A stretch of 64,000 nt of DNA from Chloroflexota bacterium (lineage in GTDB: Bacteria; Chloroflexota; UBA6077; JACCZL01). The stretch lies in the NCBI GenBank assembly GCA_030447245.1, contig JAUJPG010000004.1, forward strand, positions 16,843 to 80,842, read 5' to 3'. Positions 17,613-50,203 of the stretch are shown here, one piece after another (position 1 is the first letter of the stretch; each line of letters starts with the position of its first letter). The notes under the pieces were generated by a model. It searched no databases. It was not told where the DNA came from and saw only the letters and a list, made by a program, of their open reading frames with translations. The position numbers and the translations under genes are program-made.

Positions 17613-18186
17613 ACGAGCGTCCTTCACGTTGAAGAGCTGCACGGCGGAAGCCGCGACTTTCACCATCGCCACCCGCCTGCGGGGCACCATTGTCCGCGGC
17701 GGGGTGGCGCTCTTACAAGGTCAACGAGCGTCGTGGAGTCCGGATCTGCACCCCAGCGGCAAGGCCGGCGAAGGGCCGAAAACCCGCCCGCGACCGACCC
17801 CGTGGTCATCGACGAAGCGAACATGCTCGAAGTCCTGAACTCCAACCAGCTCACCAGCCCTATCCAACCTGGCTCGCACCTGCTGAAGGTGGGCGACCCG
17901 GACTAGCTCTCGCGCGTTGGCACCGGTAAACTCCTGGCCGACCTGCTCCGAATATGAGCGCATCCCCGTCAAGCGCCTGGAACACAGCTTCCAGCGGAGT
18001 GATGGGTGCGGCATCGCCCAGAGTGCCCGATAGATCAGCGCCGGCGAGTTGCCGCGCGTCGGCGAAGACGTCCGCGACTGTCTCCTTGCTGTCGGCCCAC
18101 GAGCCAGCCTCGGGCTCGTCATCCTCGGGGGCCGACACCAAACCGTGACGCTCCAGCCCACGTTGATTCCTCAGATAGTCGCCTTG

Positions 18187-18231
18187 GACGGATACACGGG
18201 CACGGCCCACGCGCTGGCGGACGGCGCGCAT
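18187..18231 (-). pseudogene. short dtd-like N-terminal remnant
   Basis: MRAVRQRVGRARVSV at the start of track ORF 17860..18231 nearly matches the Dtd N-terminus [15 protein letters not shown]; similarity is lost after about 15 residues. Confidence 0.3.
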
Positions 18232-18344
18232 CGGTAGGCGGCCGGTCCGAGCACGTCCGAGGATCTCCCGTCCGCCGAGTCATGCCGCCAGGCACCGCCC
18301 ACCGCGCCCTCAGCGTCAACACGTCGACGGCGCGAACCTGGATG

Positions 18345-18413
18345 CGTTCTAGACACAACAGAGCGGCGATACTGCTCCGATGGGCCGACCAGGACGCGGT
18401 CGCGAGCCGATAG
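18345..18413. repeat. about 70-bp repeat, copy 1 (second copy at 24471..24546)
   Basis: cgttctagacacaacagagcggcg...ggccgaccaggacgcggtcgcgagccgatag versus cgttctagccacaaaagtgccgcggcg...gaccgaccaggacgtggtggcc; both encode ...LRW(A/T)DQD(A/V)VAS. Confidence 0.5.
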
Positions 18414-19468
18414 CATGGGACCGCTACGCCGCTCCCACGACCGGGCGGGTGGCGAACGGCCGTGGAGGGTTGACCGTGAAGAAGCGTGTCGCCGGTCCGC
18501 TCGAAGCCATCACCGCGCACCAAGCCGCACTCCCGCAGGGAGGAGATATGGCCTACGGCGTCGCCTTCCTCTGCGCGGTGATGGCGGTGCGGGATGCCTG
18601 GCTGCGTCACGGTGCGCGGGTGGCCGTTGAGGACCTGGTCGGGCGTGCCCTGCGTGACGGAATGCGCCGCGCGACCGACGGGTCTACCTGGCGGCGTGCG
18701 CCCCGCGAAGCTCAGCCACGGCGGCCGTGGCCCCGTCTCGATCGAGAGGATCGGGACAGGGGACAGGGCGGCCGCCCAGGATGTCGCCGTCGATGCCCCG
18801 GGCGAGAACGCCCCGTCGCGGATGCATGAAGCAGGAGCCGTTCGACGGGCCGAAGACGGCGATGCCGCCTTGCGGGCCGTCGTCAGCGAGGTTGCCGAGC
18901 CGTGTGCGCGTCAGCGCCTCGCACGCGCTTCCCTAAAAGTTGTCGTTGTCGTCATCGTTGTCGTTGTCGCCCCCGTTGTCGCCGTGGTCCTCATTGTCGC
19001 CGTGGTTGTCGTTGTCACCGCCACCACCGCCGCCATTGCCAACTCCTCGGCGCCTCGTACGCACCGATGTCGCAGATCGCCATCGCGTTGCCGTCGCCGT
19101 CGATCGGCCGGGAGACGGCGCGCTGGTGGACCGACTCGAAGATGACCGGGTCGCAGGCGTCGATCGCCACGCTGCCGGCAGCAGCGCGTGGGTCTGGGTC
19201 AGCCCGCCGTTGCTCGCGAGCGGGCCGAGCTTCGGGTCGCCACTCGACACGTCGCCGGTCGCGCTCAGACCGCAGGACGCGTCGGTCGAGAGGTTGTGGC
19301 CGCCCTACTGGTAGCCCGAGATGGCCTCGATGAAGCAGTCGGTCGGGATGCCGCGCCATGCCGTTGGCGAAGATGGTGTTGCGGGGCACCGAGGTGCCCT
19401 GGAGAGCCGCGAGGTTGCCGCCGCGCGTGTCCTCGACGTGGCGGCCAGGGTGGCGTTAGAGAGCACTA

Positions 19469-19482
19469 GTGGGTCAGTTCTC
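19469..19482. repeat. left terminal inverted repeat of the IS630-family element
   Basis: gtgggtcagttctc preceded by TA. Confidence 0.6.
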
Positions 19483-19558
19483 GCGAGGGTTGCCAAACGG
19501 GTGTGTGCCTGGCATGCTCTGGCGTCCGTTCGGTCGAGCGAGCGGACGGAGGTCAGCC

Positions 19559-20572
<1,014 letters not shown>

Positions 20573-20887
20573 TGCCCTTGTACACGCGCTAGGCGGCTCC
20601 TGGCCGAACATGGCCGAGTCCGTCCAGGCGCATCCTCGTCCGGGCGCGCCCTGGATGGCCACCACCCCGAAACTGCCCAGCAGGTCATGGACCGCTGGCC
20701 GCCACCGTCCGGGGGCTGGAACGCGGCCCCAACCCCGTTCGTCTGGGGCGGCCACCGTCGGCAGCGCCGCTGGCGGGCCCGCCGCCGGCGGCCGCTCGCG
20801 TCGAGCCGCACGGCCTCGGCGGCTCCGCGGCACTCACCCGTCGCCCACTCCCTCGTCGCCGCTCAACGTATGAACGGCTCTGCGCAT

Positions 20888-20902
20888 GAGAACTGACCCA
20901 CC
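20888..20902. repeat. right terminal inverted repeat of the IS630-family element
   Basis: gagaactgacccacc followed by TA; reverse complement matches the left TIR. Confidence 0.6.
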
Positions 20903-22049
20903 TAGCGTGCGCCATTGCCCTCGTGGAGGACGCCGTGGCCATACCCGCCCCCAATCCTGCTGCTGAAGACCGCGCGGTTGGTGCTGACCGTCACGTTGGT
21001 GAGCGTGGCGACGCCGTCGGCGACGTTGAGGATCCCGCCGCCGTTCCGGGGCCTGGTTGTTGGCGAGCGTGGCGCGATACAGGGCGAGGTTGCCGAGGTT
21101 CTCGATGCCCCCGCCGCTCCCGACGTTGGTGAGCGCCTCGTTGTCCCTGACGGTGACGTCGCTCAGCGACGCGAGGGCTCCACCCGCGGTTCGTCATCCC
21201 GCCGCCCCAGGCGCCGTCGATGACGACGCGGTTGCCTGAGGACGACGTTCGACAGGTTGACCGTTCCGTGGCTGTGGATGCCCGCCGTGGGCGTAGCCGA
21301 CGAAGCCGAAGCCGGGCCTTGCCATTCGTGACCGTCGCCTCCCTGATCTCGAGGGTCGCGCCCGTATTGACGTCGAAGACGCGGTCGCCGGGTCACGTCG
21401 CCGTTCCCGTCGATGATCGTCTGGGTCCAGCGGCCCCCTCGATGCTGGATGCTGGAGCCGGCGATGACGTCGAGGTCGCCCTTCGCGGCGTTGTTGTCGA
21501 CATCGGCCCGCCGCCGTCGGCGCCGCCGATCCCGAGCAGGTACGTCCCGGCTGGCAGGATGATGACGTCCCGGGCCCGCCAAGGCGTTGGCCTCGATGAT
21601 CGCGCCCCGCAGCGAGCAGTTGCCGGGGACATAGAGCAGGTTGTCAGTGGTGGTCGTCACGGTGAAATCGACCGCGTGGGCGGCCCGGGTCGACGTTGCC
21701 GTCCCGCCGATCGTCAGGGTAACGATGATCGCCAGCGCGGCGGATGTACCTCGCTCGCCTATCTCAGCCTCCCATCCGGTCGCTCGCGCTGCGCGAGCCT
21801 ACCTGTTCGGGATCACCTAGGTGAACATCGGCCTGATGTCTGAGATCTAGACGTGCAGGCGACGTGGTTCTCGTTCATCTCCTCTCCGTCGACGACCGCG
21901 ACCAGCCGCGTGGCCGCCAGCCGACTCCATCGGATACCCTCGTCATGCAACCCCCTTCACGAGCTGAACGACGGCGCCCGCCGCGATTCGGCGCGCACGG
22001 CTCACCAACCTGCGACCAGTCTACCGCGTCATGCCCCCCGGCCCCCATG

Positions 22050-22087
22050 GAAGTACGGGGTTTCCGGGGTTTCAGTACGGGCTTTTC
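22050..22087 (-). repeat. GTAC-containing motif, copy 1 (reverse orientation)
   Basis: aagtacggggtttccggggtttcagtacgggctttt is the reverse complement of the AAAGCCCGTACT / AAACCCCGTACT units seen at 44.8 and 48.9 kb. Confidence 0.7.
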
Positions 22088-22290
22088 GCCCTACTGGATC
22101 GTGGACTGGTGCCAGCAGCACGTCGAGGTGTACCGCTGCGGGGAGGCCCCACAGGGAGGGTCAGCCCCGTGGTAGTCACCGGGCGGGGGGGTGCCGCTCG
22201 TGGCAACGCTCGCGGGCGAGGAGGTGCTGACGACGCCGCTCCTGCCCCATTTCGCCTGCCCCTGCCGAGCCTCTGGGCGCCATCGTCCCG
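22085..22290 (+). pseudogene. Uma2-family endonuclease C-terminal remnant (copy A)
   Basis: YWIVDWCQQHVEVYR and LAGEEVLTTPLLPHFACP match the Uma2 C-terminal consensus; N-terminal two thirds absent. Confidence 0.45.
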
Positions 22291-23339
22291 ACCGCGAGCC
22301 GATCGCCCCCAGGGCTCGACGTCCGCCATGGTCGGGCCGCGGTCGTCGATGGGGAGCGCCCCGCGAGGGCCCGGGCCTCGCTCGACGGCCGCGCGCGGTC
22401 GTCCCCGCCGCCGTCAGCGGAGGCGCAGCCGCTCCACGCCCTGGGCCGGTGGCCGCGTAGAGGTACCGCCCGTCGATCCTCAGCGCCAGGTCGGAGATCA
22501 GGCTCAGGTCCTGGTGCCCCAAGTCGGTCCAGGTGGCCCCGCCGTCGAGGCTGGCCTTCACCCCGCTGCCGATCGGGGTCTCGCCTACACCGCCGCCGCG
22601 CTCGTAGCCGTTGAGGCCGACGTCCCGCTGGCAGGGTGTACGCCAGGTCACCATCTGGACGTTTGGTTCGGCCCCGTCCGCTCGGCTCTGCGAACGCCAG
22701 ATCTCGGTCCAGCTTGACCGTCGGTCGCTACAGGGACGAGCCCCCGCCCTGACCGCGACTGCGCGTCGACCGCGGTGGCTCTGCTCGGCCACGGCAGCAT
22801 CGGGACCCACGTCGCCGCGTCGTCGCGCGGCACCGAGGTCCCGACCTTGGCGGTCGTGTGATCGCTCGGGTCGACCGCCACGCCGACCGCACCCAGCGAC
22901 TGCCGGGGATCAGGCCGCGGTCGCTCAGGCTGACCGCGATCGCGCTGAAGCTCTGCTGCTCCGGCCACGGCAGCATCGGGACCCACGTCACCGCGTCGTC
23001 GCGCGACACCGAGGTCCCGACGTACAGCGTCGTGTGATCGCTCGGGTCGACCGCCACGCCAACCCCACCCCAGCGACGGCCGGGGAATCCGGGCGGGAGG
23101 GCGACCGACGCCCAGGTCACGCCGCCGTCGTCGCTGCGGGACAGCCCGCTCGCCGTCTTCGCGAAGAAGGCACCGCTGGCGGGCGTGAAGAGCTCGGAGG
23201 CGCTCTCGCCGAGCCCGGTCGGCTCCCAGTCCCACGCGGGCGCCTCCTGCGCCCCCAGGCCGCCACCCGTCCCGAGCGTCGCCAGCACTGCCACCAGCGC
23301 GACCGCCCGGCGTGCCATTCCCCAGCCGAGGCCCATCAT
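22100..23339 (-). pseudogene. BNR-repeat (beta-propeller, sialidase/Ycf48-like) secreted protein, frameshifted
   Basis: Signal peptide MMGLGWGMARRAVALVAVLATLG, BNR motifs SRSDDGGVTWAS, SVSRDDAVTWVPM, SLDGGATWTDL spread across three overlapping minus-strand frames. Confidence 0.5.
22781..23085. repeat. about 120-bp imperfect direct repeat inside the BNR pseudogene
   Basis: ctgctcggccacggcagcatcgggacccacgtcgccgcgtcgtcgcgcg... recurs about 170 bp downstream with a few substitutions. Confidence 0.6.
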
Positions 23340-23449
23340 GCCTGTCCCTCCCGGTTTCCGTGGTGCGCACCCCGTCGATCGCGCTTCGGCGCGCACGGGT
23401 CGCCGATCCATGACCACTCTACCGCGTCGGCCTCCCCCCGGTCCCCCGT

Positions 23450-23479
23450 GGAAGTACGGGGTTTCAGTACGGGCTTTTC
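23450..23479 (-). repeat. GTAC-containing motif, copy 2 (reverse orientation)
   Basis: gaagtacggggtttcagtacgggcttttcc. Confidence 0.7.
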
Positions 23480-23482
23480 CCC

Positions 23483-23813
23483 GTGGTTGCCAGCGGCGGG
23501 TACCTGCGTACCGCGCCCAAGCTGGTGGTCGGGGTGCTCTCACCGGGGCGGTGCACGAGCGGCGCGACCGAGAGGAGCAGCTCGCGCTCTGCGGGCGGCA
23601 GGGGGTCCGGGAGCACTGGATCGTGGACTGGCGCCAGCAGCGTCTCGACGTCTATCACCGTGGGCAAGCCCGTCGGGAGGGGCCCGTGGTCGTCACCGCG
23701 CCGAGGCAAGTATGCCGCACGTCGCGACGCTCACCGGCGAGGAGGTGCTGACGACGCCCCTGCTGCCCGAGTTCGCCTGCCCCCTGCCGAGCCTCTGGGC
23801 GCCGTCGTCCTGA
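23483..23813 (+). pseudogene. Uma2-family endonuclease C-terminal remnant (copy B), frameshifted
   Basis: PKLVVGVLSPG, EHWIVDWRQQRLDVYHRG and LTGEEVLTTPLLPEFACPLPSLWA lie in three different frames. Confidence 0.55.
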
Positions 23814-23936
23814 CCGCGGATCCATCGCGCGCTTACCCTTGCTCGGCGGCGGCGCAGGTCACCGCCAGCGCGGCCCTCGCGAGCCGCGTCAGGCTCGTCT
23901 CGGCCTCCGATCGCACAGCGCGCACGGTCCCGTCTG

Positions 23937-24482
23937 TCAGCGGTCCGCGATGACGTAGGTGAACGCCAGCGTGTTGTCAGAGATCTGCGACATGCAGGCG
24001 GCAATGTCGTCGTTCCTGTCCTCGTTTGGGCCGACCAGGATCAGCCCGTGCGCCTCGTCATCGGGGTTGTGGATCATCGGGGGCACCCAGTCGAGGATCT
24101 GGTTGAAGAAGCCGCTCCGGTTCTGGTCCCGCGCGTCGTCCTAGGGGATCGCGTAGGCGGGGTTACCCCTATCCCAGTCGACCGTCGGACGCCTGAGCCG
24201 GAGCCAGCAGGAAATCTGGAACTCGCCGGCGTGAGAGGCCCGCCCGCCGTTCGGTGCTTGCTCGTGGTACAGCACCTCGCGGTAGCGGAGCACCGCCTCG
24301 ACCGGCGGCAGGCTATGGCCGTGCAGGGCGCTGAAGTCGAACTTGAAGGCCAGCTGCCGGTACTCGTGCCAGGTGCAGCCGCTGAAGAAGCCGACCGTCG
24401 ACGGCCTCGCTTGCTGCAACGTCACCCAGCATGACCCGGCGACCGGAGGTCCCCCCGTCATGCTGGGAATCGTTCTAGCCAC
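23937..24482 (-). pseudogene. secreted Cys-containing family-A protein, 5'-truncated copy with internal stop
   Basis: LAFKFDFSALHG...CWLRLRRPTVDW then, after a TAG and a frame change, FNQILDWVPPMIHNPDDEAHGLILVGPNEDRNDDIAACMSQISDNTLAFTYVIADR; closely matches the C-terminal half of 44934..45977. Confidence 0.6.
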
Positions 24483-24546
24483 AAAAGTGCCGCGGCGCTG
24501 ATGCGCTGGACCGACCAGGACGTGGTGGCCTCACCAGGTACAATGT
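24471..24546. repeat. about 70-bp repeat, copy 2 (see 18345..18413)
   Basis: Shared cgttctag...ccgaccaggacg.ggt.gc core. Confidence 0.5.
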
Positions 24547-41798: not shown

Positions 41799-42205
41799 AT
41801 GTGATGGGACCGTGACCACAGGGTTCTCCCCGCGGCCGCTCGGCAGATGTACACTGCCGCCGTCAGACGCGGCCGAGCCGAATGGTGAGGCCGGGTGACA
41901 GCGGCAGGCCGTTCCTTCGCGAGTCGCCGCTGGTTTTCCGCAGTTGGGGCGGCGGCCAACGCCCCGTTCGTGGTCTGGCCGGGCAGCCCGGGAGGCGCAA
42001 GCTTCTCGGGCTGTTTTCTTGTCCGCCGCCCGGGGCGCTGGCGAGGCTCGGATTGGGACATCCCTCCTGTGACCCCGTACATTTACCGGGTCAGAGCAGA
42101 CAGCGTGGTATAGAGTAGTCTCACGGCAACCGGCCACTGCCGGAGGCGTCCCGCACCCTGCGCAGGGTGCCCCCGGGGCGAGTGGCTGGTGGGGCACAGC
42201 GCCAG

Positions 42206-44542
42206 ATGGGCTCGAACCGACGACGGGACAATCTCCCCGACTTCCAATCGGCCTTCGTTGGTCGCGGGCGGCACCTTGTCGAGGTCGCGCGGCTGCTTCG
42301 GACCGAGCGGCTGGTGACCTTGACCGGGCCGCCCGGTGTGGGCAAGACACGGCTGGCGCTCCGCGTCGCGAGCACGATGAGAAGCCGGTACGCCGACGGC
42401 GTCTGGCTCGTCGAGCTGGCGGCGATCGCCGAACCGGCAATGGTGGCGCACCGAGTAGCGAGGACGCTCGCCGTACTTCCCCGGCCAGGTCGGGCCCTAC
42501 TCGACGAGCTGGCGGCGCTGCTCCAGGATCGGCGCGCTTTGCTGGTGCTCGACAACTGCGAGCATGTCCTGGACGCCTGCGCGAGACTTGCCGATCGCCT
42601 GCTGCGTGCCTGCCCTGAGCTGGCGATCCTGACGACGAGCCGCCAGTCGCTCGGGCTCGCCGGTGAGTGGGCGTGGCTGGTGCCGCCACTGTCGGCGCCA
42701 CCAGTTGGCGGGCTCGGCAACGGCGCGCCGCTGGGCGAGCGCGACGCGATCGAGCGGTATGAGGCCTTCGAGCTCTTCGTAGAGCGCGCCCGGAGAGCCT
42801 CCCCGAGCTTCGCGCTGGACCAAGGCACCGCCGCGGCGGCGGCCCAGATCTGCTGCCGCCTGGATGGACTGCCGCTCGCCATCGAGCTGGCGGCGGCTCG
42901 CACGAGCAACCTGAAGGTCGAGGAGATCGCGGCCCTGCTCGACGACCGCTTCACTCTGCTGACGGCCAGTCCGGACGCAACGCCGACCGGCCAACGGTCG
43001 CTTCGAGCGACCCTGGACTGGAGCCACGATCTGCTGTCAGAGGCGGAGCAGGTCCTGTTCCGACGGCTGGCCGTGTTCGTCGGCGGCTGGACGCTGGAGG
43101 CGGCCGAAGCGGTGTGCGCGATCGACGGCGGATTACCCTCGATCGTCGATCTGATTTCGGGCCTGGTGGACCAGTCGCTGGTGGTGGCAGATGAGCGGGG
43201 TGGCGAATTCCGGTATCGGCTACTGGAGACGCTTCGCGAGTACGGACTGGAGCGGCTGCGCGCGGCGGGCGAAGAGGAGGGCCTGCGCGACGCGCACCTC
43301 GACTGGCTGCTGCGCTTCACCGAGGATGCCGAGCCCGCGCTGCGTGGGGCACAGCAGGCCGACTGGCTGGACCGGCTCGAAGTCGAGCACGACAACCTGC
43401 GGGCGGGACTCGGCTGGTGTCTCGGGCGCGGCTCGGCAGAGTCGGGACTGCGCCTGTGCTGGGCGGTCTGGCGCTTCTGGCTGACCCGCAACCATCCCGC
43501 CGAGGGGCTGGCGTGTCTGGCGCGGGTGCTCGGCCTGGAACGGGCAAAGGCGGAGCCCGCGTTGCACTTCGCTGGACTGTTTGCCGCCGGCCGGCTTGCC
43601 TACGTGGCAGGCGATCCAGAGACCGCGCGTCGGTCGCTCGAGGAGGCGCTCGCGATCGCAAGGGAGCTGGACCACCGAGAGGATATCGCCGGCGCCCTGA
43701 CTCAGCTCGGGCATCTCGCACGCGAGCGGGGCGATTACGCCACCGCGCGACGGCTGTACGAGGAGAGCCTCTGCCTTCGGCAGGAGGCCGGTGATCGGCG
43801 ACTGATCGCGATCTCGCTCGGCAGCCTCGGGCGGGCGGCCTACGGCCAGGGCAACCTGGCCGAGGCGCGGCAGCTAGCCGAAGGGAGCATCCACCTGAGT
43901 CGCACGGCTGGCGACCCGCGCGACCTTGGGACGTTGCTCGTGTTCCTCGGCGACGTTGCCAGTGAGCAAGGCGACCGCGACGCGGCGCGGGCATACTACG
44001 CCGAGGCGTCGGCCATCATCGAGCAGCTCCGAGATCGCCAGCTCCTGGCACAGCTCCTCGAAGGTTTCGCGGCGCTCGCGGCCGACGAGGATCGAGGACA
44101 GCGGGCACTGCGCCTGGCCGGCGCGGCGGCCGGCCTGCGCGAGTCGATCGGTGTCTTGCTCCAGCGTACCGAGCGTCATCGGCTGGAGCGCCGGATCGAT
44201 CCACTCCGCCGAACACTCGGGACGGACCGCTTCATGGCCCTCTGGGCCGAGGGCCGGGCCATGCCGATCGCGGACGCCATCGGCTACGCACTCGACGTGG
44301 ATCAGGTGCCCGATGCCGCGGCGGCCGTCCGGGCCGCCGCGGCCGAGCTGGGCCTGACGCCAAGCGAGCAGCGGATCACGCTGTTGCTCGGGCAAGGATT
44401 CAGCAACCGTCACATCGCCGCGACGCTGGAGGTCTCCGAGCGGACGGTTGAGTGGCACGTGGGCAATCTCCTGGACAAGCTGGGGCTAGCGTCGCGGGTC
44501 CAGGTGGCCGTGTGGGTCGTCGAGCACGGATTGGCGGGCTGA
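42206..44542 (+). CDS. STAND-type ATPase / LuxR-family transcriptional regulator
   Basis: Walker A LTGPPGVGKTRLAL, long TPR-like helical middle region, C-terminal LuxR HTH (LTPSEQRITLLLGQGFSNRHIAATLEVSERTVEWHVGNLLDKLG). Confidence 0.75.
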   Translation: MGSNRRRDNLPDFQSAFVGRGRHLVEVARLLRTERLVTLTGPPGVGKTRLALRVASTMRSRYADGVWLVELAAIAEPAMVAHRVARTLAVLPRPGRALLDELAALLQDRRALLVLDNCEHVLDACARLADRLLRACPELAILTTSRQSLGLAGEWAWLVPPLSAPPVGGLGNGAPLGERDAIERYEAFELFVERARRASPSFALDQGTAAAAAQICCRLDGLPLAIELAAARTSNLKVEEIAALLDDRFTLLTASPDATPTGQRSLRATLDWSHDLLSEAEQVLFRRLAVFVGGWTLEAAEAVCAIDGGLPSIVDLISGLVDQSLVVADERGGEFRYRLLETLREYGLERLRAAGEEEGLRDAHLDWLLRFTEDAEPALRGAQQADWLDRLEVEHDNLRAGLGWCLGRGSAESGLRLCWAVWRFWLTRNHPAEGLACLARVLGLERAKAEPALHFAGLFAAGRLAYVAGDPETARRSLEEALAIARELDHREDIAGALTQLGHLARERGDYATARRLYEESLCLRQEAGDRRLIAISLGSLGRAAYGQGNLAEARQLAEGSIHLSRTAGDPRDLGTLLVFLGDVASEQGDRDAARAYYAEASAIIEQLRDRQLLAQLLEGFAALAADEDRGQRALRLAGAAAGLRESIGVLLQRTERHRLERRIDPLRRTLGTDRFMALWAEGRAMPIADAIGYALDVDQVPDAAAAVRAAAAELGLTPSEQRITLLLGQGFSNRHIAATLEVSERTVEWHVGNLLDKLGLASRVQVAVWVVEHGLAG

Positions 44543-44798: not shown

Positions 44799-44843
44799 AC
44801 AGTACGGAGAACCCCGTACTTAAACCCCGTACTAGTACGGGGG
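44799..44843 (+). repeat. GTAC-containing motif, copy 3, ending in perfect 18-bp palindrome CCCCGTACTAGTACGGGG
   Basis: acagtacggagaaccccgtacttaaaccccgtactagtacgggg, about 90 bp upstream of 44934. Confidence 0.7.
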
Positions 44844-44933
44844 CGTCAATGGCAGCACAGGCCGTAGAGTGGTGTCAGGACGGTGTGCCATCAAGTCGGA
44901 GCGGAAGCTCCCGCGCAATGAGGAGGATTTCTC

Positions 44934-45977
44934 GTGAAGCCTACAGGACTCGCTCGAATCGCCCTGACGGCAACGGTCGCGCTCGGCGCCATCTGGAGTG
45001 CGGGCGGCGACGGCGGGCCGAGCACATCGTTCGCCTCGCTCGAGGCGGCGTCGCACCCCGAGGCGGCGCGGCAGGTTGCGACGCCGACGGTACCCGGCCT
45101 ACCTGAGAGCGCTCCGCTGCGCGTCGTCGACACGTTCGACGCCGTCGACAAGGGCGGGCGGGTCGCGCCCGGGCCCCAGGCCATCCCGCCCAACAGGGGT
45201 GACGAGCTCGTCGTGCCGGTCGAGCCCGACGACAACACGGGGTTCACCGACCGGATCAAGCATGACCCGAGCGACCGCATCGAGGACCTGGTCACGACCA
45301 CCGGCCTGTCGGTCATCCCCGAGGCGCTCCGGCCGGGCACGCACCCCTTCCCTGACGAGCCGCCCTTCACGCCGGTCGGGCCGATGGCGAACCCGCACGT
45401 GTGGGGGATGCGCTGGGTAAGCGAGGAACTCGAGGACCGCAGGGGCTATAACGACCCATGCAGGGAAAGCAACTCGACCGACCCGGTGCGCCCGAACTCG
45501 GTCGGCTTTCGCAACGTCAACAAGGTCGACGACCTCTGCAGCCTTAACCCGTTTTACCAGCTGGCTTTCAAGTTCGACTTCAGCACGCTGCGCCAGGCCA
45601 GCTTCCTTCCGATCAGCGCCGCGCTCAAGTTCCACGAAACCGTCTATGAAGAGCGCGATTCAAACGGCAACTATGTTCCCTTCGTCGGATTCCAGAACAC
45701 TTGCTCGCTCCGGCTCGGACGGCCGAATGGGCCCTGGAACGCCCCGCACGTAGGGTACCGAGGGCTCCCGTACACCGACCCACGGGAACAGAACCGGATC
45801 GGCGAGTTCAACGACATTCTGGACTGGGTGGTCACGATGGTTCGGAATCCCGCGGAGGAGGCTAAGGGGCTGATCCTCATCGGCAAGAGCGAGGACCGGA
45901 ACCCCGACAACGCCGCCTGCATGTCCCAGATCTCGAACATCGAGCTCGTGTTCACCTACGTGATCGCGGACCGTTGA
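44934..45977 (+). CDS. secreted Cys-containing hypothetical protein, family A (intact copy)
   Basis: Signal peptide MKPTGLARIALTATVALGAIWSA; conserved LAFKFDFS, CSLRLGRP, ILDWV, GLILIGKSEDRNPDNAACMSQISNIELVFTYVIADR shared with three other copies in the window. Confidence 0.6.
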   Translation: MKPTGLARIALTATVALGAIWSAGGDGGPSTSFASLEAASHPEAARQVATPTVPGLPESAPLRVVDTFDAVDKGGRVAPGPQAIPPNRGDELVVPVEPDDNTGFTDRIKHDPSDRIEDLVTTTGLSVIPEALRPGTHPFPDEPPFTPVGPMANPHVWGMRWVSEELEDRRGYNDPCRESNSTDPVRPNSVGFRNVNKVDDLCSLNPFYQLAFKFDFSTLRQASFLPISAALKFHETVYEERDSNGNYVPFVGFQNTCSLRLGRPNGPWNAPHVGYRGLPYTDPREQNRIGEFNDILDWVVTMVRNPAEEAKGLILIGKSEDRNPDNAACMSQISNIELVFTYVIADR

Positions 45978-46014: not shown

Positions 46015-47376
46015 ATGCGACTGACCACGCTCACCCGGGCCGCGCTTGCGGCGACGATCGTCCTCACGCTCGGCGGGCCGGCTCGTCCGGCACGGGCGGA
46101 CGAGTTCACCGTGACGCGCACCGACGACACCACCACCTGCACCCCCGGCGACTGCTCGCTGCGCGGGGCGATCATCGCCGCCAACACCTCGGCCGGACCG
46201 GACGTGATCTTGCTGCCGGCCGGCCTCTACATCCTGACGATCGGCGGCGCGGACGGCGGCGTCCTGGCCGCCAACGACGCCCAGAAAGGGGACCTCGACA
46301 TCGTCAATGGCTCCAGCATCACCATCGTCGGGGATGGCCCCGATACGACGATCATCGACGGCAATGGCGACATGACCCTCGATCGCGTCTTCGACATCGG
46401 CGCGGGCGGCAGGCTCCAGCTCGGGGGCGCGACGATCATGAACGGCCGCGCCGGAGTCGGCTTCCAGAGCCATGCCCACGGCGCCGGCATCCACAACCAC
46501 GGCTCGCTGATCCTGCAGAACGTCGTCATCAGCGACAACCGCGTCATGCTGACCGGCTGGGGCGGGGGCGGCATCACCAACGCGGACGCGCCCCAGAAGG
46601 CCTCGGCGTCGCTGAACAACGTCACCATCAGGGACAACGAGGCTCTCGAAGACACGGGCGGTGGCGCCATCGAGAACCTGAGCTTCCTGCAGCTCGAGAA
46701 CAGCACGCTGGCCAACAATCGAGCGCGCAATGGCGGCGGGATCGAGAACAAGGGAGTCAACGCCCTGGCCGGCCTGACCAACGTGACGATCAGCGATAAC
46801 CGCGCGGTCTCCAACGGGACCCCGACCACCGGCTTCGGCGGCGGTATCTCCAACCGAGACGGCGCGACCCTCTCCATGACCCACGTGACGCTGGCCGGCA
46901 ACAGCGCGGACACCCGCGGGGGTAACCTGGCGGCGCTGGACAAGGGCAAGTCCGTGACGCCCATCAACACGATCTTCGCCGACGGCAGCCCTGCCGATTG
47001 CTTCATCGAGGCGACCGGCGGCTACGTCTCCAACGGCACCAATCTCGCGACCGACGCCAACTGCAACCTGGCCGGCGCGGGCGACCGGCCGGGCGGCCAG
47101 GTGCAGCTCGGACCGTTGGCGGACAACGGCGGCCTGACCCCGACCCGCGCGCTGCTGCCGGCATTCCCTGACCACGGCAACGAAGCGATCGACGCCTGCA
47201 ACCCGGCGTCGTCGACGGACGCCGACCAGCGCGGCGAGCCCCGTCCCAGGGACGGCGACGGCGACGGCACGGCGATCTGTGACATGGGCGCCTACGAGAT
47301 GCAGCGCGCCGAACGCGGGCATGACAACGACAACGAGAACCACGACAACGACAACCATGACAACGACAACGACTAG
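46015..47376 (+). CDS. CSLREA-domain right-handed beta-helix surface protein (choice-of-anchor-type C-terminal region) with Asp/Asn-rich tail
   Basis: Signal peptide, CSLRGAIIAAN motif, repeated N.T....N beta-helix rungs, C-terminal DNGGLTPTRALLP...AIDACNP...DGDGDGTAICDMGAYE, tail HDNDNENHDNDNHDNDND. Confidence 0.7.
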   Translation: MRLTTLTRAALAATIVLTLGGPARPARADEFTVTRTDDTTTCTPGDCSLRGAIIAANTSAGPDVILLPAGLYILTIGGADGGVLAANDAQKGDLDIVNGSSITIVGDGPDTTIIDGNGDMTLDRVFDIGAGGRLQLGGATIMNGRAGVGFQSHAHGAGIHNHGSLILQNVVISDNRVMLTGWGGGGITNADAPQKASASLNNVTIRDNEALEDTGGGAIENLSFLQLENSTLANNRARNGGGIENKGVNALAGLTNVTISDNRAVSNGTPTTGFGGGISNRDGATLSMTHVTLAGNSADTRGGNLAALDKGKSVTPINTIFADGSPADCFIEATGGYVSNGTNLATDANCNLAGAGDRPGGQVQLGPLADNGGLTPTRALLPAFPDHGNEAIDACNPASSTDADQRGEPRPRDGDGDGTAICDMGAYEMQRAERGHDNDNENHDNDNHDNDND

Positions 47377-47423
47377 AGACCTCCTGCCGAGCGTCGGCCG
47401 GGGTAAGCGGGAGGCACACGCTG

Positions 47424-48197
47424 ATGGAGACCGAACATTCGATTGTGGCGCCAGGGCATGGGCGCGACCGATCGCGGTGGCTGCGCTGGACGGCGCTGCT
47501 GGGCCTGGTGGTCGCGCTGACCAGTCTGCCGGGCGTCGGCCTGGCGGATGACGACGAGAACAAGAAGAAGGACAAGCAGACCGCGAGCCTGCGAGAGTCC
47601 AGCCAACAGCAGACGATCGGACCAATCGACGACGCCGATCGGATCAGGATCCCTGACCTGACCGAGAAGCCGGGCCTGCCGCCGGACACGGTCGCCACCC
47701 CGGTCGACAACTTTGACGATCGGGTCAGGATCCCTGACCTGACCGAGAAGTCAGGTCTGCCGCCGGACACGGTCGCCACACCGATCGACCACGACCGGGT
47801 CGAGCAGATCGGCCAGCTGGTCGGCGAGAACACCTGGACGGACCGGGCCCCGATGCCCACCTCGCGCTTCGGGCTTGGGCTGGCGGCGGCGCAAAACGGG
47901 AAGCTCTACGCCGTCGGCGGCTACAACAACGGCGGCGCGCAGGCCACGGTCGAGGAGTACGACCCGGACCTCAACACCTGGAGGGCTCGGGTCCCGCTGC
48001 CCACCCCGCGCTCCGGGCTCGGGCTGGCGGTGGCGTCCAACGGCAGGCTCTACGCCGTCGGCGGCAACAACGGCAGCGCCTTTCTGGCCACGGTCGAGGA
48101 GTACGACCCGGCCACCAACACCTGGACGGCCCGGGCCCCACTGCCCACCGCGCGCTACGCGCTCGGGCTGGCGGCGGCGCAACCCTGCAAGCTCTAG
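47424..48197 (+). CDS. Kelch-repeat protein, truncated by an in-frame stop
   Basis: Signal/TM segment, two 27-aa tandem repeats RIPDLTEK.GLPPDTVATP, then Kelch blades (GKLYAVGG...EEYDP.TNTW); TAG at 48195 replaces the Tyr of the next LYAVGG. Confidence 0.6.
   Translation: METEHSIVAPGHGRDRSRWLRWTALLGLVVALTSLPGVGLADDDENKKKDKQTASLRESSQQQTIGPIDDADRIRIPDLTEKPGLPPDTVATPVDNFDDRVRIPDLTEKSGLPPDTVATPIDHDRVEQIGQLVGENTWTDRAPMPTSRFGLGLAAAQNGKLYAVGGYNNGGAQATVEEYDPDLNTWRARVPLPTPRSGLGLAVASNGRLYAVGGNNGSAFLATVEEYDPATNTWTARAPLPTARYALGLAAAQPCKL
47640..47795. repeat. near-identical tandem repeat (2 x about 78 bp) inside the Kelch gene
   Basis: cggatcaggatccctgacctgaccgagaag... repeated with a few substitutions. 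Confidence 0.7.
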
Positions 48198-48410
48198 GCC
48201 GTCGGCGGCGACATCGGCGGCGCGCAGGCCACGGTCGAGGAGTACGACCCGGCCACCAACACCTGGACGGCCCGGGCCCCGCTGCCCACCCCCCGCTCCA
48301 GCCTCGGGCTGGCGGCGGCGCCCAACGGCAAGCTGTACGCCGTCGGCCATCGGCGGCGCGCAGGCCACCATCGAGTACGACCCGAACGCCGACACCCTGG
48401 ACCGCTGAAC
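48198..48410 (+). pseudogene. degenerate continuation of the Kelch repeats after the premature stop
   Basis: AVGGDIGGAQATVEEYDPATNTWTARAPLPTPRSSLGLAAAPNGKLYAVG then frame loss. Confidence 0.5.
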
Positions 48411-48529
48411 GCCCGCGCCGCTCGCTGCTGTTCAATCGAGCCCGCCTCGCCCATGACCCAGACCTGGCCAAGCAGCAGGGCGCCGTCCCACCCTGGTCGT
48501 TCCCGCTGTACGCAGGATGAGCGAGCACG

Positions 48530-48875
48530 GTGCGCTCGTCAGCGATCTCGACCATGACCCAGACCCGGACCTTCCGCTCACGGGCGATGATCCGTTACCC
48601 GACCGGCAACGGGGCCGTCAGGATCAGGACTGTCGGCGACGGCGAGCTGACCCAGAATGGGTTCGGCTCGCCAGCGAAGTCGACAGGAGGGCAAGCCGCG
48701 CAACGCGGTGCCCGACTCTCGCACTCGGTGCCCGCCTTCCGCGTCAACCGGATGATCCGCTACTGATGCCAACAATGGCGTCCTGCTGCGCGGCTCCGAC
48801 GAGACGCTTTGGACCCAGGACAGCGCGTGCGTCTCCAACATCAGGCTCTCGTTCACCTACGAGATCTCCGATTAG
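48530..48875 (+). pseudogene. family-A C-terminal remnant
   Basis: Ends ...DSACVSNIRLSFTYEISD, matching the AACMSQISNIELVFTYVIAD C-terminus; upstream part degenerate with internal duplications. Confidence 0.5.
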
Positions 48876-48912
48876 CAGCCCTCGGAGACGCGTCTCGGCG
48901 CGTCCAACGGCG

Positions 48913-48947
48913 AAAACCCCGTACTAAAAGCCCGTACTAGTACGGGG
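48913..48947 (+). repeat. GTAC-containing motif, copy 4, ending in palindrome CCCGTACTAGTACGGG
   Basis: aaaaccccgtactaaaagcccgtactagtacgggg, between the family-A remnant and the CARDB-like gene. Confidence 0.7.
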
Positions 48948-49048
48948 ACGCCGGAGCGCGGTGCCGTATCGTGGTCCCAGGGCACCGCGGGTGCGCGCCG
49001 AACGGGTGCGCGGTCGCCTCGCACCGCGGTTCGGGGGAGGATCTGAGG

Positions 49049-49480
49049 ATGACGCGATCTCCGTGGCAGCGGCGGCTGCTCTCGGCGCTGCTGGCCGCCA
49101 GCGTCGTGGCAGCGGGACTGCCCGGCGAGAGCTGGGCGCAGGCCCGACCGGACCTGGAGCTAACCTACGGCGGCTTATTGCCCGACAAGCTCCGACTCGT
49201 CAAGTTCACGGTCAAGAACGTCGGCACTGCGCCCTCGTCAGCGACCAATAAGGTCGGGGTGATTACCTCCGAGCCCGAGCCGACGCCGTCGTTCCAAGGG
49301 CTCGACCTGCCGCCCCTCAAGCCGGGAGAGAGCAAGGACGTGTTCTACACCCTTGCCGCCGACTGCAACGGGCACGTCGTCCAGGCGCTGGTCAACGACC
49401 CGCTTGACCTGAACACAGCGAACAACGCTGTCGAGGACAAGCAGGGTCTGCTCGGGCGCACCGGTCGCCACGTCGCCTGA
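49049..49480 (+). CDS. small secreted CARDB-like (Ig-fold) protein
   Basis: Signal peptide MTRSPWQRRLLSALLAASVVAAGLPGESWA after a GGGGGAGGA RBS; LVKFTVKNVGTAPS...ANNAVED resembles a CARDB domain. Confidence 0.5.
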   Translation: MTRSPWQRRLLSALLAASVVAAGLPGESWAQARPDLELTYGGLLPDKLRLVKFTVKNVGTAPSSATNKVGVITSEPEPTPSFQGLDLPPLKPGESKDVFYTLAADCNGHVVQALVNDPLDLNTANNAVEDKQGLLGRTGRHVA

Positions 49481-49510
49481 AGACCCGTTTACGGTCGAAG
49501 ACTACGCCAC

Positions 49511-50203
49511 GTGCGCCACCTGCAACGTGCCGGGCGGAGTTTCGACCCGGGCCTGCACACGCTGTCCCTCCGCCGGGCGGCCTTCAAGACGCTGAGACGC
49601 CACAGGGTCGAGGGCGATTGCTACATCGGGCACGAAATCGTCGACGAGGCGCAGAACCCGCCCTTTCCACTCATGGGCGGCACCGGAATATCAGTTCTGA
49701 GAGCCCCGATCTTAACTCGTGACTGTCAGACTAATGGTGTCTGGCACGCGGCGTTCAGGTTCAACCTGTCCGAAATCCGGGGGCGGTGGGCGGCCGGGCG
49801 GTTGTCCGTGCTCACCATGGAGCTGACATTCGAAGAGACTCCGTACCTCTCGTCCCTCGACGGCATCACTGGCAAGAGGGAGTTCATGATTAACCTCTGG
49901 CGTCCGCCCACCTTCGACTTTAGTCAGCACGCGCCGACCGAGACCTGCTGGCCGCGGCTGGCCCGTCCGACGGTCGACTGGAGCCGCACGGGCATCGTGG
50001 TCCCGAACGACGTCCTCCTTGAGGCGGGACAGATCGGCACCTTCCCGCTGCTGCATCAGATCGGCGATATGCTGCGCTACCCGGAGAACGACGGGCTCGG
50101 ATTCCTGATCCTCGGCCACAACGAGGAGATGCACTTCAACGACGCGGAGTGCGTCTCGAAGATCGACAACGTCACACTCAACGTGACCTACCACGTCCAC
50201 TAA
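49511..50203 (+). CDS. family-A paralogue (divergent, no obvious signal peptide in the called frame)
   Basis: AFRFNLSEIRG, ETCWPRLARPTVDWSRTG, GFLILGHNEEMHFNDAECVSKIDNVTLNVTYHVH align with the other family-A copies; may be fused to or frameshifted from the upstream CARDB ORF. Confidence 0.55.
   Translation: MRHLQRAGRSFDPGLHTLSLRRAAFKTLRRHRVEGDCYIGHEIVDEAQNPPFPLMGGTGISVLRAPILTRDCQTNGVWHAAFRFNLSEIRGRWAAGRLSVLTMELTFEETPYLSSLDGITGKREFMINLWRPPTFDFSQHAPTETCWPRLARPTVDWSRTGIVVPNDVLLEAGQIGTFPLLHQIGDMLRYPENDGLGFLILGHNEEMHFNDAECVSKIDNVTLNVTYHVH

Follow-up and report, generated by a model that had tools for sequence, protein, structure and literature searches.

Paralogous composites of a putative promoter and a Uma2 relic in a decaying island of secreted-protein genes

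The window, the whole 64,000-nucleotide stretch of DNA that we analyzed, contains two similar segments in which a conspicuous GTAC motif lies directly beside a piece of a Uma2-family gene. A preliminary description had read them as a duplicated pair of truncated Uma2 remnants, each preceded by the motif. This presents a puzzle: what was duplicated, and does the motif belong to Uma2 or to something else?

Segments A and B and their Uma2 content

Pairwise alignment places segment A at 21982-22306 and segment B at 23380-23828, with similarity far beyond chance. Self-blastn of the window, the kind of self-comparison that had been called for, recovered the duplication as two matches: 22093-22296 against 23615-23818 (209 bp, 80% identity, E 3e-45) and 21982-22090 against 23380-23482 (112 bp, 76% identity, E 6e-16). 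MAFFT and the repeat families D4-D7 were concordant. The collinear similarity begins at 21982/23380 and ends at 22306/23828, ~15 bp beyond the stop codon of the Uma2 piece in B (TGA 23811-23813), as in a segmental duplication. The proposed paralogy of A and B, which a failure to align beyond chance would have contradicted, is thus borne out by these alignments. The segments as first outlined are real, although the left edge of A had been drawn slightly too generously, at 21960 rather than 21982.

The deletion reported in A corresponds to 132 bp of B (23483-23614). Several further indels of 1-5 bp separate the two copies, and A contains a 9-bp tandem duplication (CGGGGTTTC) at 22056-22073, within the motif. 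The Uma2 pieces are as follows.

22093..22306, plus strand: Uma2 remnant A (tblastn, E about 1e-13; blastn against B; sub-threshold in Pfam)
23483..23813, plus strand: Uma2 remnant B (Pfam PF05685 match; tblastn with 188-aa homologues)

The stitched translation of B matches PF05685 with an E of 2.8e-11 and 43.6 bits, above the gathering score of 27, and covers profile positions 91-159 of 172. A alone reached 14.3 bits, under the cut-off, but 188-aa Uma2 queries aligned to it in tblastn over residues ~132-180 (E about 1e-13). Remnant B represents residues ~90-188 of a 188-aa Uma2 protein, distributed over three reading frames with at least 2 frameshifts; the tblastn pieces found in different frames with the query P0006 and its relatives lie at 23483-23551, 23554-23661, and 23697-23807. 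Its nearest intact homologues are 188 aa long and 59% identical. Remnant A spans residues ~132-188, and its frame is broken by a 1-nt deletion near the end and by other indels. Neither copy forms an uninterrupted open reading frame with a start codon or a complete domain of ~170-190 aa, and tblastn found no Uma2 N-terminal half anywhere in the window. The catalytic core reads PKLVVGVLSP in B (PELVVEVLSP in P0006; consensus P(D/E)LVVEVLSP), so that the conserved acidic core P(D/E)LVVEVxSP of the PD-(D/E)XK fold is lost there, and the region is deleted in A. With no start, no N-terminal half, frameshifts in both, and mutated core residues in B, both Uma2 pieces are dead relics without function, and on their truncation and decay the preliminary description was right.

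Were they already dead when they were duplicated? Substitutions between A and B fall on the three codon positions as 6/5/13, a third-position excess (Fisher p = 0.019) drawn from a small sample of 24 substitutions, to which compositional bias at GC-rich third positions could contribute. The excess hints that both copies may have been coding for some time after they separated, in which case the block would more plausibly have been truncated twice, independently, than duplicated in a truncated state. A full-length Uma2 gene and a divergent promoter would then have been duplicated, both copies would have functioned for a while, and each would have lost its 5' part independently (B to codon ~90, A to ~132), with selection on the promoter keeping the deletions from running into the boxes. 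The same history would suit the different Uma2 codons at which the junctions fall in A and B, the coincidence of the protein's most conserved stretch, its C-terminal one, with the best-conserved DNA between the copies (87-88% versus 75%), and the presence at a related locus, L027, of a Uma2 gene that retains its N-terminus and lies about 150 bp from a box promoter, in divergent orientation. We nevertheless consider it rather unlikely: it requires two deletions ending at the same nucleotide and is less parsimonious than a single truncation followed by a further deletion in A, although both scenarios predict nearly the same present-day sequence.

The GTAC boxes as a putative promoter of opposite-strand genes

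The half-site AGTACGGGSTTTY occurs 8 times in the window, at four places, against an expectation of 0.09. At these places the general layout is a directly repeated pair of 13-bp boxes (nAAAsCCCGTACT) with a third, inverted box, followed by a TAGAGT-like -10 element, a ribosome-binding site, and a gene encoding a signal peptide. A fifth site has a single palindrome.

21982..22092, minus strand: putative promoter/leader block A (sequence; five-promoter alignment); boxes 22074-22087 and 22052-22064, degenerate inverted box, -10-like TAGACT at 22018-22023
23380..23482, minus strand: putative promoter/leader block B (sequence; five-promoter alignment), heading a minus-strand BNR-like gene; boxes 23466-23479 and 23453-23465, degenerate inverted box 23441-23452, -10-like TAGAGT at 23416-23421
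44807..44870, plus strand: site C, the best-preserved copy of the motif, heading gene C; boxes 44807-44820 and 44821-44833
48912..48972, plus strand: site D, heading a CARDB-domain gene; boxes 48912-48925 and 48926-48938
42071..42116, plus strand: site E, a single imperfect palindrome upstream of a LAL regulator gene

Block B includes part of the 5' leader (GTGCGCGCCGAA). In block A the 9-bp duplication has pushed the boxes apart, and downstream lies an ATG (21944-21946) preceded by a GGGGG ribosome-binding site. Site C carries a perfect palindrome, CCCCGTACT meeting AGTACGGGG, which extends to 44843 and is followed after 31 nt by TAGAGT at 44865-44870; gene C itself (44934-45977) encodes a signal peptide, and its product exists as a predicted NCBI protein. 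The palindrome of site D extends to 48947, with TATCGT at 48967-48972 after 28 nt, and the CARDB-domain gene (PF07705) starts at 49049. At site E, GACCCCGTACA meets TTTACCGGGTC and TAGAGT follows after 29 nt, at 42111-42116. The palindromes are perfect at C and D, which head the better-preserved genes, and the third box is degenerate at A and B, which head pseudogenes. Neither C nor D heads a fully intact operon: an apparent frameshift affects the Kelch gene after 48197, and an in-frame TGA ends the CARDB reading frame.

The geometry is the same at all five sites. The box center lies 28-31 nt upstream of a TAnnnT hexamer, which is followed by GGT or AGT, a leader of 44-70 nt, a ribosome-binding site, and a start codon; by our own arithmetic, the chance of a TAnnnT in that 4-nt window is about 0.013 per site. 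A promoter scan found no sigma-70 -35/-10 pair at the boxes, and no canonical -35 is present. The box thus occupies a fixed position over the -35 region where the -35 hexamer is absent, as an operator would, taking the transcription start to lie just downstream of the TAnnnT hexamer. Its distance to the -10-like hexamer varies by 3 bp, a wider margin than expected of a strict class II activator.

The motif does adjoin each Uma2 remnant physically, as first described, but it is not a Uma2 upstream element. Where the motif ends, Uma2 homology starts at once in both A and B, leaving no room for a promoter or start codon between them. Because the -10-like element, the ribosome-binding site, and the start codon all lie on the other side, toward the minus-strand genes, the shared block would be a divergent promoter; and because the same motif and leader head non-Uma2 genes at 44.8 kb and 48.9 kb, it is not specific to Uma2. 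No boxes were present near the intact Uma2 homologues at loci L025 and L026. Most likely, the GTAC block is the control region and promoter of the genes on the opposite strand.

We also looked for other signals and for wider occurrence of the motif. An intrinsic terminator was rejected: only site D was flagged, on the strand antisense to the local genes, and the hairpin is degenerate in A and B. Rfam covariance models gave no match at gathering score in the whole window. Scanning a genome collection, which does not include the source genome, for AGTACGGGSTTTNAGTACGGG returned 4 unrelated matches, about the number expected by chance. The metagenome scan for AASCCCGTACTNNNNSCCCGTACT returned 20 loci in about 9 families, most of them 13-bp minisatellites or unrelated sequences (Agathobacter, L018, L022, L023); only L024 looks related.

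A candidate regulator for the boxes

One gene in the window is a natural candidate to act on these sites.

42167..44542, plus strand: LAL (MalT-like STAND) regulator (Pfam: AAA/NB-ARC, TPR_MalT, and GerE, the LuxR helix-turn-helix)

Among the window ORFs scanned, no other was found to encode a DNA-binding regulator. The gene immediately precedes site C and is itself preceded by a palindromic box. The association recurs elsewhere. L027 is syntenic with the window (GlgP-BipA-SpeE-Mur-Ddl-LAL) and contains a LAL orthologue, right after which comes the layout of boxes, 31 nt, and -10, with the variant box TCCGGTAC; the variants there differ by 1-2 bases, with a 14-bp period at one site, and their homology was partly judged by eye. 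In L028, a LAL paralogue is followed by GAAAAACCCCGTACC, by GCGGCCCCGTGCT meeting AGCACGGGG, and after 30 nt by TACGGT, and then by homologues of the window genes C and D (E 5e-47). The distance from the box center to TAnnnT at the L027 and L028 sites is 30-31 nt. In L024, a box lies 760 bp after a LAL C-terminus. Across four regulator-site pairs, the recognition helix and the box vary together: SERTVEWHV.N is paired with the CCCCGTAC box and SPRTAEWRVGR with the TCCGGTAC box. LAL paralogues in unrelated contexts (L030-L032) had no boxes. Two observations concern Uma2 at such loci: at L026 a LAL gene adjoins Uma2, yet without the motif, and at L027 a different, likewise decayed Uma2 lies divergent to a box-type promoter.

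A GerE-domain regulator is thus found near the boxes and conserved with them in L027, L028, and L024, and the LAL protein most likely binds the boxes through its LuxR-type DNA-binding domain. We also considered whether they are regulatory but bound by another factor, either an unlinked regulator or an alternative sigma factor, with the LAL gene a mere neighbor. This lineage has a very large number of LAL genes (7997 matches with E below 1e-30, and many paralogues in one relative), so that adjacency to boxes can arise by chance. We find this explanation doubtful, since regulator and box are neighbors at four loci, drawn from at least three sources, the box changes together with the recognition helix, and the ORFs scanned in the window include no rival DNA-binding regulator. 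LuxR/GerE-type dimers, moreover, use palindromic boxes of 18-22 bp centered near -42, such as the lux box and the DosR box.

A broader proposal, which we offer tentatively and as a single whole, is the following. The GTAC boxes may be the operator of a previously undescribed LAL regulon in an uncultured, probably Chloroflexota lineage, controlling a lineage-restricted family of secreted proteins (CARDB, beta-helix, and Kelch) with a common, unannotated domain at the C-terminus (...ACMSQIS.I.L.FTY.IADR). Between paralogous regulators, the operator would have co-evolved with the recognition helix, and the promoter/leader block would have served as portable homology that shuffled and duplicated adjacent DNA, dragging dead Uma2 pieces along.

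The decaying island and comparison with known systems

Both segments lie in a 6-kb region, 18.4-24.5 kb, in which every gene is broken. By sequence comparison, it is a paralogous counterpart of the cluster at 44.9-50 kb, rearranged and decaying where that cluster is better preserved.

19054..21946, minus strand: gene string headed by block A (blastn, tblastn, three-way alignment)
22417..23339, minus strand: BNR/Asp-box-like secreted-protein pseudogene headed by block B (ORFs in three frames)
23858..24407, minus strand: pseudogene X, abutting the 3' end of Uma2 B (tblastn, blastn, alignment)

In the string headed by block A, the start codon is followed by the 3'-terminal ~40 codons of a C/D-family gene (about 21905-21790) and then by a beta-helix pseudogene. 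The latter has lost its own start codon (ATG to ATA), and a degenerate IS630-like element (about 19455-20960) interrupts it. By blastn, 20964-21868 matches 46813-45907 at 70% identity and 19054-19451 matches 47298-46888. The BNR-like pseudogene retains a signal peptide and SxDxGxTW motifs, and carries frameshifts and a 176-bp internal tandem duplication (22786-22894 and 22962-23070; repeat family D2, 91% identity). Pseudogene X represents a C-like C-terminal domain, with 50% identity to residues 186-347 of C and an in-frame TAG (24141-24143); at the DNA level, 23858-24138 matches 46055-45776 at 74% (blastn). After the C-like part comes an 80-bp remnant of a beta-helix gene start (ATG to ACG). 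Before stitching, no ORF of the IS630 relic, the beta-helix fragment, or the BNR gene was recognized by Pfam; the stitched transposase matched HTH_28/29/32 only, and the stitched BNR translation gave a weak BNR match (E 0.0013) under the cut-off.

Duplication followed by decay, the history first suggested, is supported, but it was not a simple two-copy event: a second module, comprising the C-like 3' end and the beta-helix start, is also duplicated (about 21790-21905 and 23858-24023), in a different relative order. A single tandem-duplication history could not be reconstructed; the interval that separates Uma2 A from the BNR stop (22307-22416) has no blastn similarity to the beta-helix-start remnant abutting Uma2 B.

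The precision with which Uma2 abuts the block in both copies, and the IS630 relic nearby, could also suggest that the block represents a mobile-element end, either transposase-binding subterminal repeats or a mobile promoter cassette, that landed in or deleted into Uma2 genes. Tn7- and Mu-type ends do have a similar appearance, with multiple short repeats in both orientations close to a sharp boundary. We regard this reading as very unlikely, because neither a terminal inverted repeat partner within the 64 kb nor a target-site duplication was found, and the inner end of the block is not an inverted copy of its outer end. A and B face right and C and D left, with their insides pointing apart, so that they do not pair into elements within the 64 kb, and no transposase is associated with C, D, or E. 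Segment B had no blastn match in plasmid and phage collections. The spacing to the -10-like hexamer and the gene starts is fixed, and the position after LAL is kept in the syntenic L027. Finally, a metagenome-assembly artefact (collapsed or chimeric paralogues, indel errors), to which a region so rich in paralogous repeats might be prone, is highly improbable, given that the remainder of the window is occupied by long intact ORFs of 600-870 aa, that the defects go beyond homopolymer indels (ATG to ATA or ACG, TAC to TAG, the 132-bp deletion, the 176-bp duplication, the IS insertion), and that the copies, 20-30% diverged, are too distant for an assembler to collapse.

The explanation that we consider likely as a whole is that A and B are paralogous composites, each joining the promoter and leader of a minus-strand secreted-protein gene to a divergent Uma2 3' relic, in a decaying island and with boxes most likely bound by LAL. 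The first part of each copy would comprise the promoter and 5' leader, the GTAC motif acting as an activator or operator site centered about 41-44 bp upstream of the putative transcription start. The second would be the 3' end of a divergent gene of the Uma2 PD-(D/E)XK nuclease family whose 5' half was lost. Deletions that removed Uma2 sequence may have gone no further than the outer box edge because selection would have acted against losses reaching into a promoter still in use, which we offer as a suggestion only. Given the decayed Uma2 divergent to a box-type promoter at L027, Uma2 and the promoter may also be associated other than by accident. The LAL regulator would switch on a small regulon of secreted proteins.

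By themselves the Uma2 remnants matter little, being decayed copies of a highly expanded and possibly selfish family of small nucleases. More useful is that the GTAC motif should be read as a putative divergent promoter/operator rather than a Uma2-associated element, and that 18.4-24.5 kb should be annotated as pseudogenes. The candidate regulator-operator pair has natural specificity variants in a poorly studied lineage and could define a LAL regulon by sequence alone.

The Uma2 pieces clearly derive from the Uma2 / DUF820 / TT1808 family (PF05685, COG4636) of predicted PD-(D/E)XK endonucleases, but unlike its members they are not genes: the N-terminal half and start are absent, the frames are broken, and core acidic residues are replaced in B. 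The family includes large paralogous expansions, such as 15 copies in Thermus thermophilus (PMC1274311), and in some lineages has mobile, poorly conserved contexts (PMC3424549). Given such expansion and mobility, stray fragments are to be expected.

The putative operator has closer parallels. Like LuxR/GerE-type operators, the window sites present a palindrome of 18-22 bp about 41-44 bp upstream of the presumed start, here with extra direct half-sites upstream; they have no -35 hexamer, as in activator-dependent promoters, and a neighboring gene encodes a MalT-like STAND regulator containing a GerE domain. The lux box is centered at -42.5, the DosR box is a 20-bp palindrome, and MalT boxes form direct and inverted repeats upstream of promoters without a -35. 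To our knowledge, the box nAAAsCCCGTACT and its 13-bp period match no known operator. The island as a whole resembles decaying paralogous clusters and segmental duplications in bacterial chromosomes, with diverged collinear blocks, an IS insertion, frameshifts, and lost starts. Unlike in simple tandem duplications, its modules are permuted, and we speculate that the promoter block itself served as portable homology for recombination.

The duplicated segments and their Uma2 remnants

Two paired segments, A (21982-22306) and B (23380-23828), each carry a Uma2 remnant and a candidate minus-strand promoter block. Self-comparison of the window aligned 22093-22296 with 23615-23818 (80% identity over 209 bp, E 3e-45) and 21982-22090 with 23380-23482 (76% over 112 bp, E 6e-16). 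MAFFT and a repeat finder gave the same relationship, and the similar stretch extends from 21982/23380 to 22306/23828. Within these limits, 132 bp of B (23483-23614) are missing from A, the motif of A contains a 9-bp tandem duplication (CGGGGTTTC), and the copies differ by several further indels of 1-5 bp each. The preliminary description was thus right that the two segments are related and that A carries a deletion relative to B.

Uma2 (DUF820) is a predicted PD-(D/E)XK nuclease family (PMC3424549) with large paralogous expansions (PMC1274311). The stitched translation of B matched the Pfam Uma2 profile (PF05685) with E 2.8e-11, exceeding the curated cut-off, over profile positions 91-159 of 172; its nearest intact relatives are 188-aa Uma2 proteins of at most 59% identity. 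When eight intact 188-aa relatives were used as tblastn queries, B comprised residues ~90-187, split among three reading frames, A comprised residues ~132-180, and no N-terminal Uma2 piece was found in the whole 64 kb. The core of B reads PKLVVGVLSP in place of the conserved P(D/E)LVVEVLSP. A start codon is absent from both copies because Uma2 homology starts a few bases from the motif. Judged by the partial domain, broken frames, altered core of B and missing start codon, A and B are both pseudogene fragments, truncated as had been proposed. The remnants are ordinary genomic debris.

In the simplest reading, one truncated Uma2-promoter block would have been duplicated, and A would then have lost a further 132 bp. 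In the Uma2 frames, A/B substitutions are distributed 6/5/13 over codon positions 1/2/3 (Fisher p = 0.019), and the best-conserved A/B DNA coincides with the most conserved stretch of the Uma2 protein. Both points hint that the two copies were coding for a while after separation and were then truncated independently, with deletions that ended at the boxes of the motif because the promoter was under selection.

The pseudogene island and its paralogous cluster

Protein- and DNA-level self-comparisons showed the 18.4-24.5 kb region to be a scrambled paralogue of the 44.9-50 kb cluster, whose order is gene C (a secreted-protein gene, 44934-45977), a beta-helix gene, a Kelch gene and a CARDB gene. 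Starting at 24.4 kb and descending along the minus strand, this island contains:

1. X (23940-24407, -), a C-like gene that lacks its 5' part and is interrupted by an in-frame TAG
2. beta-helix gene-start remnant, 80 bp, ATG changed to ACG
3. Uma2 B, antisense
4. promoter B
5. frameshifted BNR-like gene carrying a 176-bp internal duplication
6. Uma2 A, antisense
7. promoter A
8. start codon and the final ~40 codons of a C/D-family gene
9. beta-helix pseudogene, ATG changed to ATA, interrupted by a decayed IS630-like element

A second duplicated module, consisting of a C-like 3' end and a beta-helix start, is present at 21805-21884 and 23943-24023. The two copies place it differently with respect to the Uma2/promoter module, so more than one tandem duplication is needed to explain the history. 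Of the proposed duplication followed by decay, the paralogy of A and B and the decay of both hold, but a single tandem event does not account for them. Sequencing error as the source of the defects is disfavoured by the long, uninterrupted ORFs in other parts of the window.

The entire island is flanked by a ~60-bp direct repeat (18345-18403 and 24471-24529, 78% identity), possibly delimiting a segment that was duplicated or inserted. The tandem duplication in the BNR-like gene (22786-22894 and 22962-23070, 91% identity) shifts its frame, since 176 is not a multiple of three. The IS630-like transposase relic (~19455-20960) is heavily frameshifted; its stitched translation matches HTH_28/29/32, and DDE_3-like motifs were recognised by eye alone.

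One family of secreted proteins without a Pfam match is characterised by a common C-terminal domain that ends in ...AC(M/L/V)SQIS.I.L.FTY.IADR-stop. Its members are encoded in the window (44934-45977; 24407-23940, -; 49481-50203; ~48500-48875) and in L028, a locus of GCA_973843005.1 (3558-4697; 4780-5748; 5765-6991). A search of 5.8 billion proteins gave just one other homologue of protein C, but several relatives are encoded in L028. The CARDB ORF (49049-49480) and a C-type-domain ORF (49481-50203) share a frame with a lone TGA between them, and their L028 homologues are single fused ORFs; the TGA reflects either a fresh pseudogene or a stop that is read through. The Kelch-repeat gene (47361-48485) contains four 144-bp tandem repeats (47771-48347) and 81-bp Pro/Thr-rich repeats (47636-47792), and has an apparent frame break past 48197, after which Kelch homology resumes in a different frame.

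The GTAC motif as a candidate promoter

The half-site AGTACGGGSTTTY occurs eight times in the window, against 0.09 expected, arranged as four pairs:

Paired motif sites: coordinates, strand, gene served
A: 22052-22087, +, beta-helix gene string
B: 23453-23479, +, BNR-like gene
C: 44807-44833, -, gene C (44934-45977)
D: 48912-48938, -, CARDB-domain gene (start 49049)

Read in reverse orientation, all four sites have an identical order of elements: two direct 13-bp boxes (nAAAsCCCGTACT); an inverted box, degenerate in A and B, which in C and D completes a perfect palindrome, CCCCGTACT/AGTACGGGG; a 28-31-nt spacer; a -10-like hexamer (TAGAGT, TAGACT or TATCGT) and GGTC; then a 57-70-nt leader, a GGAGG-type ribosome-binding site, a start codon and a signal peptide. 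A fifth site, E, has one palindrome (42071-42092), 29 nt and TAGAGT, upstream of the regulator gene at 42167. A promoter scan found no sigma-70 -35/-10 pair at any of the five sites, which fits activator-dependent promoters.

From the element order and the genes served, the motif adjoins the Uma2 remnants yet points away from them. Its description as preceding Uma2 therefore stands as adjacency at A and B but not as orientation, and two of the four pairs have no Uma2 nearby. On sequence grounds, the best interpretation of the motif is an operator-promoter region for the adjacent secreted-protein genes. The degenerate third box of promoters A and B, and the broken box spacing in A, are consistent with dead cargo.

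Linkage of the motif to intact Uma2 genes was rejected, as it is absent at two loci with intact homologues (L025 and L026). A transposon or MITE end was likewise rejected: no inverted partner was found in the 64 kb, the orientations are incompatible with it, the promoter geometry is fixed, and the position is syntenic in L027, a second GCA_973843005.1 locus. A terminator would lie on the wrong strand, there was no Rfam match to a known RNA, and searches for a plasmid or phage origin found no matches.

L027 also contains a decayed Uma2 of another subtype (17815-18300; 91 aa, internal deletion), divergent to a promoter with the box layout of the window (AACCAGTACT twice, 30 nt, TAGACT). Uma2 beside such promoters may thus be a common, recurrent neighbourhood, or a coincidence in a Uma2-rich lineage. 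At L026 (1009-4550), the gene of a 985-aa LAL regulator comes 18 bp after that of an intact 188-aa Uma2 homologue, and GTAC boxes are absent.

The leaders of A, B and D (21982-22000, 23380-23400, 49000-49020) have GTGCGCGCCGAA in common, ~35-45 nt past the inferred start; it is missing from those of C and E, and may be a leader element. 13-bp minisatellites with a CCCGTACT core (2 to ~10 copies) occur in unrelated contigs, namely Agathobacter-type gut contigs (L002, L005 and others) and L018, L022 and L023. A flanking 14-mer of the gut contigs, GTCCGGCGGGTACA, is found in one orientation or the other depending on the contig, pointing to an invertible segment.

The LAL regulator as a candidate box binder

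Directly upstream of site C lies the ORF of a MalT-like STAND regulator, LAL (42167-44542; AAA/NB-ARC, TPR_MalT and GerE domains); the scanned window ORFs yielded no further DNA-binding regulator. LAL homologues are very numerous, the best being just 48-53% identical and from Chloroflexi-type MAGs. L027 is syntenic with the window (GlgP-BipA-SpeE-Mur ligase-Ddl-LAL), and right behind its LAL gene are two direct boxes of the variant TCCGGTAC, an inverted box, 31 nt and TACACT. In L028, a LAL paralogue is followed by GAAAAACCCCGTACC and GCGGCCCCGTGCT/AGCACGGGG, 30 nt, TACGGT and a cluster homologous to window genes C and D (C 41% identity, E 5e-47). In L024, a metagenome contig, the box sits 760 bp past the LAL C-terminus.

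The recognition helix pairs with the box: SERTVEWHV.N with CCCCGTAC in the window and L028, SERTVEWHAAN likewise with CCCCGTAC in L024, and SPRTAEWRVGR with TCCGGTAC in L027. LAL paralogue loci in unrelated contexts had no boxes. Adjacency in related loci, helix/box pairing and the boxless unrelated paralogues together make binding of the boxes by LAL the best hypothesis, and the secreted-protein genes are probably controlled by this adjacent regulator. The palindromes of LuxR-type activators are typically centred near -42.
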